DNA of 64,000 bases from Tidjanibacter sp. (lineage in GTDB: Bacteria > Bacteroidota > Bacteroidia > Bacteroidales > Rikenellaceae): contig JAFXAY010000097.1 of NCBI GenBank assembly GCA_017521965.1, forward strand, positions 13,370 to 77,369, given 5' to 3'. A program made the translations under genes and the position numbers. The notes under the pieces are model-generated. The model saw nothing but the letters and a program-made list of their open reading frames with translations, ran no database searches and had not been told where the DNA came from. Below are positions 47,932-50,304 of this stretch, piece by piece (position 1 is the stretch's first letter; each line of letters opens with the position of its first letter).

Positions 47932-48534
47932 ATGACCAGCAAACTACTCGAACAGGCTGTGGGCGAACTCTCTAAGTTGCCCGGCGTGGGTCGTCGCACT
48001 GCGTTGCGATTGGCACTCCACCTGCTCTCTCGCGAGAAGGAGGAGGTGGCTCAGTTTACCGATGCGCTGAGCCGATTTCGCAATGATATTCGCCACTGCT
48101 CCTATTGTAACAACCTCTCCGATAAGGATATATGCCCCATTTGTGCCGACCCCTCGCGCGACCGCTCTGTGGTATGCGTGGTCGAGCAGGTGGGCGATGT
48201 GATGTCTATCGAGAATACCCGCCAGTACAACGGACTCTACCACGTCTTGGGTGGCGTTATCTCGCCTATGCAGGGCATCTCGCCCTCCGACTTGAAGATT
48301 GACCTGCTCCTCGAAAATATACAACGACAGGGCATCAAAGAGGTGATTTTGGCGATTGGCACCACCGTTGAGGGCGAAACCACACTCTTCTATATCTCGC
48401 GCCGCTTGGAGCAGTTCCCCGACGTGAAGGTCACCACCATCGCGCGTGGCATTGGCTTCGGCGACGAGATTGAGTATGCAGATGAGTTGACCATAGCCCA
48501 CGCTATATCCAATCGCACACTGATATCTAGGTAG
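47932..48534 (+). CDS. recR: recombination protein RecR
   Basis: Helix-hairpin-helix N terminus, C4 zinc finger CSYCNNLSDKDICPIC, Toprim domain. Confidence 0.95.
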   Translation: MTSKLLEQAVGELSKLPGVGRRTALRLALHLLSREKEEVAQFTDALSRFRNDIRHCSYCNNLSDKDICPICADPSRDRSVVCVVEQVGDVMSIENTRQYNGLYHVLGGVISPMQGISPSDLKIDLLLENIQRQGIKEVILAIGTTVEGETTLFYISRRLEQFPDVKVTTIARGIGFGDEIEYADELTIAHAISNRTLISR

Positions 48535-48597
48535 AAGCACCAATGAAAAGGTAGATACCCTACTCTTTCTAATGACCACCTCGACACCTGCGTTCCC

Positions 48598-49283
48598 CAT
48601 TGTCGTTCAGCGTTCAGCGTTCACTCTCTAAGTGGTGAACGCTACTGAACGGTCTTAAAACACTGATATTCCAATAGTTAAGCGTTCAGTGAGCGTTCAA
48701 TCGGTGAACGCTACTGAACGATATTGAACGATATTGAACGCTCAGTGAACGGTAATACCGACCAATCATAGAAATTGGGTAAGTAACCATACAAAACTAT
48801 CTGAGAAGATTATCAACAGAGTATCATATTGATAGTTGAAACTCAACAGAATAATATGTTAATAGTTGATTATCAAATTATTGTTTAATGATGTTGATAA
48901 TCATACTCTTATAATATCTGTTACAACACAGATATATCAGTATTATACTGTTACTATGTGTTACTATTGGCTGCCTGTTATAGTCCATATTCAGCCAATA
49001 TATACTATAAATATATTACCCTAAAACACTTATATTAAGGTATTTAGGGTAATATATATTATCTATATATGCTATTGCAAGTAATGCATATATTGGACTA
49101 TCGGACTTATTTTCACAATTCTGCCCCCGACTGAACGCCTATCGTTCACCGAGCGTTCAGTAGCGTTCACCGATTGAACGCTCACTGAACGCTTAACTAC
49201 TCGATTATCAACACATTAAGACCGTTCACTAGCGTTCACCACTTAGAGAGTGAACGCTGAACGGTGAACAACAATGCAAAATT
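48598..49283. repeat. composite palindrome: 120-bp inverted arms rich in TGAACG/CGTTCA flanking an AT-rich core
   Basis: 48601-48720 is the reverse complement of 49164-49283, apart from one 19-bp patch and 3 mismatches. 22 perfect hexamer copies counted. Confidence 0.9.
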
Positions 49284-49300
49284 CAACACTACAAAAACAA

Positions 49301-49335
49301 TAGCGAGAAGAGAAATCTTCTCGCTATTATTATAT
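49301..49335 (-). terminator. intrinsic terminator of yajC
   Basis: Stem AGCGAGAAG/CTTCTCGCT followed by TTGTTTTTGT on the minus strand. Confidence 0.65.
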
Positions 49336-49349
49336 AAGGTGTAAAACTC

Positions 49350-49664
49350 CTACTGCTGCTGCAAGTCGGCGGGAGCCTGCATCACCATACTCTTGTCGAT
49401 GCGGATGCTCACGTTGTTGTCAACCTCCATCAGGATATAGCCCTCTTTCACCTCTTTAACGGTACCGTAGATGCCACCTGCCGAGATAATCTTGTCGCCA
49501 CGTTTCAGACCGTCGCGGAACTTCTGCAACTCCTTCTGGCGCTTCTGCTGGGGACGAATCATAAAGAGCCACATTACACCAAAGATGAGCACCATCATAA
49601 TCAGGAAACTCATATTGCTACCTGCTGCTGCGGGCTGTGTTGCCTGCAAATAATTGAAAATCAT
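49350..49664 (-). CDS. yajC: preprotein translocase subunit YajC
   Basis: FLIMMVLIFGVMWLFMIRPQQKRQKE and GGIYGTV motifs. Confidence 0.95.
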   Translation of the reverse strand: MIFNYLQATQPAAAGSNMSFLIMMVLIFGVMWLFMIRPQQKRQKELQKFRDGLKRGDKIISAGGIYGTVKEVKEGYILMEVDNNVSIRIDKSMVMQAPADLQQQ

Positions 49665-49800
49665 AGTCGTTAATCTATTTAGTTATTATTTTGTGTTCTC
49701 TCTTTTCCGCAAAATTAAACAATCGGAAGTGTAAAACCAAATTCTCCGCCCAATAGAACAATTAATTGCCCCTATCGGACATCGGCAGTCACCACCAATC

Positions 49801-50304
49801 CTATCGGACATCGGCTGTCACCACCAATCGGAGCGGCTCGTCGGAGAGCGAGGTGGTGATGTAGATGCTTTGCGAGAAGCGGCCGCCATAGCCTGCCGAG
49901 TCGAAACGTACATCGAAGGTGGCGCTGCGCTTAGCGCGTATAGGCTCCGACGAGAACTCTGCCGCCACGCAGCCACAAGTGGTGCGGGTGCCGAGTATCG
50001 CCAGCGCTGTGGTGTCGGCATTGCGGATAGCCAACTTGCGGGTGACCACCTCGCCAGCACCCACGCGACCCATATAGACGGTGTCTATCGCCTTGCCCGA
50101 AGTGAGGCGCTCAGCCGAGAGGGTGATGCCCTGAATAGTGGTGGAGGTGTGCTCGTGGTTGTGGTGTGCCTCGGAGGTGTGATTGTGGTGTGCCTCGGTG
50201 GTGTGCGCCAAATCGCGCTCTATGGCTTTGTTGGTGCGACTGCCGCAACTGCCTAATAGCAATACGACCGTTATCCCCACAACCAAAATGTGTAAAAATC
50301 TCAT
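49801..50304 (-). CDS. DUF1573-like lipoprotein with a His-rich linker
   Basis: Lipobox LLLGSC, HHNH repeats, CGC motif (TTCGCVAAEF). Confidence 0.75.
   Translation of the reverse strand: MRFLHILVVGITVVLLLGSCGSRTNKAIERDLAHTTEAHHNHTSEAHHNHEHTSTTIQGITLSAERLTSGKAIDTVYMGRVGAGEVVTRKLAIRNADTTALAILGTRTTCGCVAAEFSSEPIRAKRSATFDVRFDSAGYGGRFSQSIYITTSLSDEPLRLVVTADVR

Follow-up and report, generated by a model that had tools for sequence, protein, structure and literature searches.

A composite palindrome with arms of phased hexamers next to yajC in a Tidjanibacter-like lineage of Rikenellaceae

The DNA analysed here is a stretch of 64,000 nucleotides from Tidjanibacter sp. (contig JAFXAY010000097.1), called hereafter the window. 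Two of its genes, recR and yajC, converge, and the 815 bp between their 3' ends contain no long open reading frame (ORF), as had been stated in an earlier note made from the letters of the window; the longest is of 52 amino acids. This gap holds a real non-coding composite palindrome of about 690 bp next to yajC, called hereafter element E, in which two inverted arms surround an AT-rich core (Table 1). Its edges were placed where the homology to three other contigs of the same species (L042, L050 and L086) stops. Folded as a single DNA strand, E reached -190 kcal/mol, versus -58 for shuffled sequences (z = -26). The intrinsic terminator of yajC lies between E and yajC, outside E, and was kept in all yajC contigs, E-bearing or E-less.

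The arms are inverted copies of one another over 123 nt, and 91% complementary. They had been recognised in the earlier note, but with the right arm at 49164-49283; most right-hand and core coordinates given there were shifted by +7 to +11, and corrected ones are used throughout. The 18-mer described as occurring four times does so, with its inverted copies at 49154-49171 and 49223-49240. Similarly, the arms do differ in a 19-bp patch, but it is not "entirely different": 8 of its 19 positions differ, between two versions (A and B) of the loop of a hairpin, P2, that is found in both arms. The right-hand version is not at 49209-49227 but at the position given in Table 1.

The arms hold 22 perfect copies of the hexamer TGAACG, or its complement CGTTCA, in 48604-49263, as had been claimed, including three heptads starting at 48604, 48611 and 48618, and five phased copies ending from 48710 to 48751, exactly where they had been described. 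The distances from start to start were 7, 7, 18, 10, 37, 11, 11, 10, 10, 10 and 11 bp in the left arm and 11, 11, 10, 11, 11, 37, 10, 18 and 7 bp in the right arm, with 386 bp between the arms. The other 63 kb contain 23 copies, and the whole window 45, versus 29 +/- 5 in shuffled sequences; no other 300-bp segment reached the density seen in E, for any 6-mer. Alignment of the 22 sites showed that the true repeat unit is longer than the hexamer, with the consensus R-S-TGAACG-C-T. The arms are therefore gap-free arrays without spacers, made of units of 10-11 bp, and of 7 bp at the tips, and within each arm units of either orientation are present. The core is perfect in every one of the 22 in-phase units while the flanks vary, and the only two degenerate copies at unit positions are at the outermost tips. 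Among strains of the species, 5 of the 132 hexamer columns were variable, versus 29 of 187 in the rest of the arm (Fisher test, p = 7e-4), a comparison with a slight ascertainment bias, as the hexamers were defined on the window sequence.

A homologous element was found in a related species, at about 7420-8215 of contig L087, in a 1.5-kb spacer between a GT2 gene and yajC. The two elements can be aligned over their full length without reversing either, and in both the loop of B type is toward yajC and that of A type away from it. The GT2 proteins of the two species are 88% identical and the yajC genes 87% identical at the nucleotide level, versus 60-64% for the arms of the elements and 51% for the core. 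The letters of the units have changed, the cores being GAAACG in the outer part and GTRTACG in the inner part, with TGAACG at a few sites only. The 10/11-bp spacing was kept, as was the 7-bp spacing at the yajC-side tip, together with the scaffold CTCTCTAAGT...AACGCT.....AACGG...TAA...TAGTTAAG, and a 111-bp arm unit is tandemly duplicated. Hairpin P2 still pairs (90.6% of cells), and at 3 of its pairs both sides have changed. Hairpin P1 was lost and its CTCTCTAAGT box was invariant, so that in P1 the sequence is conserved, and not the pairing. That a diverged homologue occupies this locus in another species, with its orientation unchanged, looks like vertical inheritance. The 10-mer CTCTCTAAGT is also present inside recR (47968-47977, GCGAACTCTCTAAGTTG), probably by chance.

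Inspection of a near-identical strain revealed the interior of E in the opposite orientation. The contig (L031, 62 kb, from a k=141 assembly of sample ERZ27256862) is 99.75% identical to the window over 4.8 kb, and reads recR, recR-side outer repeat, patch B, then 105 bp of the yajC-side core. It keeps three diagnostic bases of the recR-side outer repeat and continues with the interior of the other arm. Since the recR junction and the outer repeat are identical to those of the window and are followed by patch B, we conclude that the interior, approximately 48659-49216, is reversed. The crossover maps to 48646-48658, within TGAACGGTCTTAA; a crossover at the centre of hairpin P2, giving a hybrid loop, was rejected, as the loop of L031 is of B type throughout except for one single-nucleotide polymorphism (SNP). 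The longest exact stretch common to both paths is 33 bp, and the B-type interior of L031 has two SNPs that are absent from every B arm next to yajC, which makes an assembly chimera unlikely. Smaller changes were also observed among strains. In L042, the loop of a hairpin with a 7-bp stem (48914-48935) has the reverse orientation. Strains have also gained or lost units of 7, 10-11 and 33 bp, and differ in the number of inner-arm units (48692-48751). No similar inverted repeats, which would have been a sign of a shared invertase, were found upstream of the polysaccharide locus of the window (see below).

Table 1. Features of element E and its surroundings (window coordinates, unless a contig is named)
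Feature	Position	Strand	Remarks
recR	47932-48534	+	window ORF
Truncated 5' part of dispersed repeat R2	48545-48592	+	ends ...CGACACCTGC, abutting E
Whole element E	48593-49283	.	edges where homology to L042, L050 and L086 stops
Arms	48598-48720 and 49154-49276		inverted copies, AT-rich ORF-free core between them
Outer inverted repeat, recR side	48598-48658	+	three heptads, CTCTCTAAGT box, two hexamers
CGTTCAG/C heptads (three)	48604-48624		within recR-side outer repeat
Conserved CTCTCTAAGT box	48624-48633		within recR-side outer repeat
Hairpin P2, A side	48644-48690	+	stems ACTGAACGgtCTTAA / TTAAGCGTTCAGT, 19-nt loop
P2 loop, patch version A	48659-48677		the patch of the earlier note
Inverted segment	48659-49216	.	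opposite orientation in a near-identical strain (L031)
Inner A-side arm	48692-48751	+	palindrome AGCGTTCA-ATCGG-TGAACGCT, followed by five units of one sense at 10-11-bp spacing
AT-rich ORF-free core	48752-49131	.	30-bp direct repeat, hairpins, two GATTATCAACA copies
11-mer GATTATCAACA, core copies	48808, 48892	+, -
30-bp direct repeat	48813-48872		core
Core hairpins	48914-48935, 48966-48999, 49016-49052
yajC-side arm	49132-49283	-	10 hexamers
Hairpin P2, B side	49185-49231		within yajC-side arm; loop is patch B
Patch B	49198-49216		loop of P2 B side; carries third GATTATCAACA copy (49203+)
Outer inverted repeat, yajC side	49217-49276
yajC intrinsic terminator	49296-49331	-	16-bp stem and T run; between E and yajC, outside E
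yajC	49350-49664	-	window ORF
R2 copies	window 61717-61812; L098 5660-5940; L087 7000-7265; L089 3436-3548; L093 1839-1954
Minisatellites	L041 4380-4600; L042 5100-5270; L086 6990-7205; L087 7269-7423, 8220-8483; L098 5940-6075

The core has a GC content of 0.20-0.35, in agreement with the AT-richness reported before. The 9-mer TTATCAACA was indeed found three times, at positions corrected to 48810(+), 48892(-) and 49205(+), and the palindrome TTACCCTAAA/TTTAGGGTAA is present, at 49016-49052 and not 49026-49062. No ORF is common to the core and the L087 homologue, and the core contains no conserved small ORF. A search of Rfam gave a single chance match, to SNORA19 (E-value 0.98), and at the gathering threshold only two tRNAs in the window. 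The core contains one Bacteroidetes-type -7 box, TAGTTTTG; this box was not kept in the L087 homologue, nor were the core hairpins, and matches of the sigma-70 type were not above chance.

Contigs with an identical RecR or YajC came from rumen and gut metagenomes and from three metagenome-assembled genomes (MAGs), and were 97-99.8% identical to the window. The nearest named relatives of YajC and RecR belong to Tidjanibacter sp. MAGs (Rikenellaceae), with 90% and 93% identity, respectively. On the yajC side, the set consisted of 12 sequences, 11 contigs and the window. Seven of them carry E (the window, L042, L043, L044, L046, L047 and L050), and one, L048, has a variant of E built from CGAACG. 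E is absent from the remaining four (L041, L045, L049 and L097), where the yajC terminator leads straight into a palindromic minisatellite of TTAGGGAG/CCCTAA. Downstream of yajC in three sister species (L078/L081/L085, L088/L095 and L096), E was not found: yajC and a GT2 gene face each other at a distance of 53-57 bp in L078, L081, L085, L088 and L095, and in L096 the facing gene is that of an alkaline phosphatase. In sister species, recR faces a gene for a BACON-domain protein.

The window itself, over its 64 kb, contains one copy of E, and a profile search with the arm revealed no copy beyond the yajC locus in about 750 kb, of which about 250 kb were Rikenellaceae and none a complete host genome. 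As the metagenomic contigs cannot be linked to single strains, copy counts are per locus and not per genome. An exact scan of genome contigs with the 18-mer, the search proposed in the earlier note, gave four chance matches in unrelated phyla, the representative assembly of the host being evidently without the region. No match was obtained with two exact patterns in metagenome contigs, with three element-specific exact patterns in viral contigs, or by blastn of E and the L087 homologue against plasmids and phages, and a literature search on the motif returned nothing relevant. Generic patterns of phased hexamers or heptads detected, in viral contigs, only unrelated high-GC phage operator-like arrays, coding sequence or tandem repeats. 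In this material, we noted inverted triplets of TGAACG type around an intergenic region beside small helix-turn-helix (HTH)-like genes (L022, 4800-4980), GTGAACGGG repeats (L004, 5560-5720; L025, 6690-6850), GTTCATGAACG palindromes at a contig end (L017, 27-137) and a tandem array of 330 bp (L021, 4972-5300). The phased TGAACG arrays of these unrelated high-GC viral contigs are analogues of E and not homologues. In the data examined, E is a fast-evolving element of a small Tidjanibacter-like clade within the Rikenellaceae, where it occupies one chromosomal spot immediately beyond the terminator of yajC.

On the recR side, E abuts a truncated copy of R2, a dispersed GC-rich repeat of several short hairpins (...CGACACCTGCCTGCTTCGCAGGCA...CCCCGCCTCGGCGGGG...); in contig L035 the sequence runs on ...CACCTGCCTGCT, as R2 does. 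R2 was detected at five loci, downstream of tRNA-Gln/alkaline phosphatase, recR, GT2 and yajC in several related species, and behaves like a family of repetitive extragenic palindromic (REP) sequences or MITEs (miniature inverted-repeat transposable elements). Because the outer end of E abuts a truncated dispersed repeat, its adjacency to recR is derived. Within the window's species, the far neighbour of E is a GT2 gene reached through a minisatellite (L086), a nagB-like gene (L042 and L050) or recR (window). These varying neighbours, together with the truncated R2, indicate that E stayed with yajC while its far flank was rearranged and deleted. In the genus-level group, yajC has four different downstream neighbours (GT2, nagB-like, recR and alkaline phosphatase), so that its 3' flank is a hot spot of synteny breakpoints. 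Among the first 20 contigs, obtained via recR or yajC, 15 end in or beside E or neighbouring repeats.

Around E, at convergent 3' ends, palindromic minisatellites with units of 7-10 bp form mirror-image layers. Their motifs are TTAGGGAG/CTCCCTAA, TCATTTC/GAAATGA, AATTTTG/CAAAATT, TTGGGCCTA and AATAGGAAT, and their copy numbers vary among strains; none was found within the window.

Some other observations were made close to E or elsewhere in the window. In the window's species, the recR stop codon is followed by no terminator-like hairpin (48534-48600), unlike in sister species (L098 and L099), so that recR transcripts may read into R2 and the arm of E. An ORF of 218 amino acids, antisense to recR (47944-48600, minus strand), reaches the edge of E and is almost certainly a spurious shadow of the recR frame. 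On the other side of yajC, a 29-bp tandem duplication (49771-49829) lies just upstream of, and overlaps, the start of a DUF1573 gene, which has 24/13-bp repeats inside (50155-50206) and whose protein is 159-167 amino acids long among strains of the species. Finally, about 23 co-directional genes at 14574-37891, with a GC content down to 35-39% versus about 50% elsewhere, open with a GT4 glycosyltransferase and a UDP-glucose dehydrogenase; this run is probably a surface-polysaccharide locus, possibly acquired horizontally.

The reading that we tentatively prefer is that E is a locus-resident palindrome, the arms of which are arrays of putative protein-binding sites and recombine with each other. 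It is suggested by the invariant cores between variable flanks, the spacing that was kept, the boxes conserved without pairing and the asymmetry conserved between species. Three models had been left side by side in the earlier note, namely an iteron or initiator site, the multi-site ends of a non-autonomous transposon, and a binding array or invertible segment. The last is the best supported, by the inverted interior, the conserved cores and the spacing kept through the change of letters. The TGAACG units would be the recognition sites of a sequence-specific DNA-binding protein encoded elsewhere. A spacing of one turn places the sites on one face of the helix, so that the protein could coat both arms. 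The coated arms might then be brought together across the bendable AT-rich core, and the paired arms would recombine. Recombination between the arms would explain the two orientations of the interior, the likeness of the arms, and the gain and loss of units. From these patterns we infer that a protein binds the arms, and that the inversion is driven by this binding and not by mere homologous recombination or by template switching; E may also bring some benefit to the cell. By analogy only, phased TGAACG-type arrays lie beside small HTH-like genes in unrelated phage contigs.

Several points weigh against the binding-array reading. The inversion was seen in one metagenomic contig, and the conservation test has the bias mentioned above. 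A candidate protein was not found: no cognate gene adjoins E, as the earlier note had already remarked, and a scan of 36 window ORFs, which left out about 21 ORFs of the low-GC block (17.1-37.9 kb), yielded no recombinase, transposase or partition gene. E is dispensable, many strains being without it. Gene conversion, through concerted evolution, is another process that can maintain uniform cores in repeats. Furthermore, the same hot spot holds inverted 7-10-bp arrays of other motifs (TTAGGGAG, TCATTTC, TTTTGAA and TTGGGCCTA), so that a generic process at the DNA level could build arrays without protein.

The main rival explanation, somewhat unlikely in our opinion, requires no protein: E would be a hairpin minisatellite, larger than the other palindromic short-repeat arrays at convergent 3' ends. 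Slippage, hairpin template switching and gene conversion between the arms would build and homogenise it, and it would be inert, or at most a bidirectional terminator or a 3' RNA structure. The neighbouring arrays of other 7-10-bp motifs, in the species and its relatives, fit this explanation well, as do the variable number of units, the small hairpin loops that flip among strains, the extreme folding energy, and the dispensability and fast divergence of the element. However, arrays made by simple slippage are uniform along the whole unit, whereas in E it is the cores that are perfect and the flanks that vary. The one-turn spacing that survives the change of letters, the CTCTCTAAGT box conserved without its surrounding hairpin, and the asymmetric loops and orientation conserved between species also speak against a minisatellite. 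A less probable alternative is a non-autonomous transposon, either MITE-like or a mini element whose ends carry many sites, which would have inserted downstream of yajC, be moved by a transposase from elsewhere in the genome and have further genomic copies. Its size (about 690 bp, within the 50-1000 bp of MITEs), the absence of ORFs longer than 52 amino acids, the AT-rich interior and the arms, 91% alike and with ends of the form ...TGT...ACA..., give E the appearance of such an element. Some strains have it and others have "empty" sites, its edge is a synteny breakpoint, and it is always the same end that points to the 3' end of the conserved gene, as in the homing of Tn7. No second locus was seen: the arm profile detected no copy elsewhere in about 750 kb and the scans of genomes, metagenomes, viral contigs, plasmids and phages nothing related, whereas R2, a truly dispersed repeat, was easily detected at five loci. 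Comparison of filled and empty sites left a T run or "AT" as the sole candidate for a target-site duplication, and nothing convincing. The terminal bases vary among strains and the flanks differ in L042, L050, L086 and the window. In addition, the diverged, syntenic homologue resembles vertical descent, and units in both orientations within each arm are unlike the ends of Tn7 or Mu, where several sites of ~20 bp have the same sense within an end. The non-coding nature, terminal inverted repeats and presence or absence among strains agree with a MITE, but a classical MITE is not supported, with no dispersed copies in the sequence searched and no convincing target duplication; E may be a low-copy or homing element.

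The remaining explanations have much less in their favour. An invertible promoter or small-RNA gene in the core, as in the classical invertons of Bacteroidales, is very unlikely, even though inverted repeats flank a segment seen both ways (in L031) and a -7 box is present. In all four arrangements seen, the 3' ends of the neighbours point at E; the box and the core hairpins were not conserved, Rfam gave nothing and sigma-70 matches were at chance. A classical inverton fails, because there is nothing for E to switch. We consider highly improbable a chromosome-level cis site for a lineage-specific protein, such as a compact replication fork trap, with two opposed arrays of sites at the terminus, or a centromere-like array. 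Known Ter and centromere systems are dispensable and lineage-specific, and E is apparently single-copy, with two opposed arrays around an AT-rich centre, between convergent genes and at a rearrangement hot spot. However, neither a tus/rtp-like nor a par gene is among the scanned ORFs, each arm contains units of both orientations, no skew maximum was seen at E within the 64 kb, and many strains and the sister species are without E. The array architecture of a parC-like centromere is present, but not its promoter context. Finally, a replication origin or iteron-type initiator site, inspired by phased repeats, an AT-rich core and three TTATCAACA boxes one mismatch from the DnaA box, is hardly credible, and was rejected. 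Three sister species and 4 of the 12 conspecific sequences are without E, it lies where two genes converge, its units are of 10-11 bp and not of the 17-22 bp of iterons, and no initiator gene (dnaA or rep) is nearby. The near-DnaA boxes are only three, and none was noticed on reading the L087 homologue, where no pattern search was run. The skew analysis proposed in the earlier note showed no switch at 48.6 kb within the window, which is too short for a genome-scale skew. Readings as a dif-like site or an integron attC-like hairpin were dropped by eye, their layout being unfitting, and a tRNA-linked integration was discarded, as no tRNA is near E.

A more specific form of the binding-array reading, which we hold to be improbable, would make E the cis platform of a Rikenellaceae system. 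A protein encoded elsewhere would load on the two mirror-image arrays, pair them and flip the 560-bp core, and its specificity would have co-evolved with the letters (TGAACG, CGAACG and GAAACG/GTRTACG). If so, E would be a chromosomal locus that is phase-variable yet non-coding and has no flanking promoter under its control; it might instead influence the local structure of the chromosome, the passage of replication forks or recombination at the hot spot. If the arms are protein-binding arrays, they offer a compact natural example of changed letters with a kept spacing grammar, and a handle on a new DNA-binding protein or recombinase in a poorly studied family of the gut and rumen. Whatever its function, E, with the neighbouring repeats, fragments short-read assemblies and marks a rearrangement hot spot, and a tempting false call of an origin has been removed.

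Among known systems, the REP sequences and bacterial interspersed mosaic elements (BIMEs) of Proteobacteria are 20-40 bp long and present in hundreds of copies. Like them, E can form hairpins, lies at the 3' ends of convergent genes, varies among strains and is prone to recombination; the REP description nevertheless fits the neighbouring R2 and not E. In Tn7, Mu and the subterminal hexamers of maize Ac/Ds, many short transposase-type sites fill about 150 bp per end. E shares with them the dense short sites, the tips TGT...ACA and the fixed orientation downstream of a conserved gene. It differs by its mixed-sense 10-11-bp units, its seemingly vertical homologue and the absence of a 5-bp duplication, of a second copy in the sequence searched and, among the 36 ORFs scanned, of tns or other transposase genes. 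Plasmid centromeres provide a further parallel: R1 parC has a core with a set of five 11-bp repeats on either side, and the heptad arrays of pSM19035 are bound by omega. Such arrays are located at the promoter of the par operon to which they belong, and their repeat sequence co-evolves with the binding protein. E has likewise two contiguous arrays of 7-11-bp units, direct and inverted, on one helical face and around a central segment. In contrast, it is chromosomal and without an adjacent gene, with long arms that are inverted repeats of one another and an interior that inverts.

Within the Bacteroidales, E resembles BrickBuilt and other MITE-like elements of Porphyromonas gingivalis (PMC4596501), in being strictly intergenic and non-coding, with short terminal inverted repeats, internal short repeats in variable number, a distribution restricted to the species and no database homologues. 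BrickBuilt elements, however, are dispersed in about 19 copies per genome, with 23-nt tandem repeats of the same sense and terminal repeats that match ISPg insertion sequences (IS) of the IS5 family (PMC4596501), whereas E was seen at one locus only, with 10-11-bp units in both orientations, mirror-image arms, a unique core and no known matching IS. With the invertons of Bacteroidales it has in common that a stretch a few hundred bp long, lying between inverted repeats, exists both ways round in natural populations (PMC7641763, PMC10939037). Known invertons have repeats of 10-30 bp and carry a promoter, or part of a gene, by which expression is switched; a recombinase is often encoded nearby (PMC7641763, PMC10939037). 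In E, the repeats are of about 60 bp (123 bp in total) and lie between two 3' ends, with no conserved promoter, and no recombinase was present among the 36 window ORFs. E is a real, unusual and lineage-restricted non-coding repeat, which has the defining features of neither BrickBuilt-type elements, nor invertons, nor the phased-repeat centromeres of plasmids.

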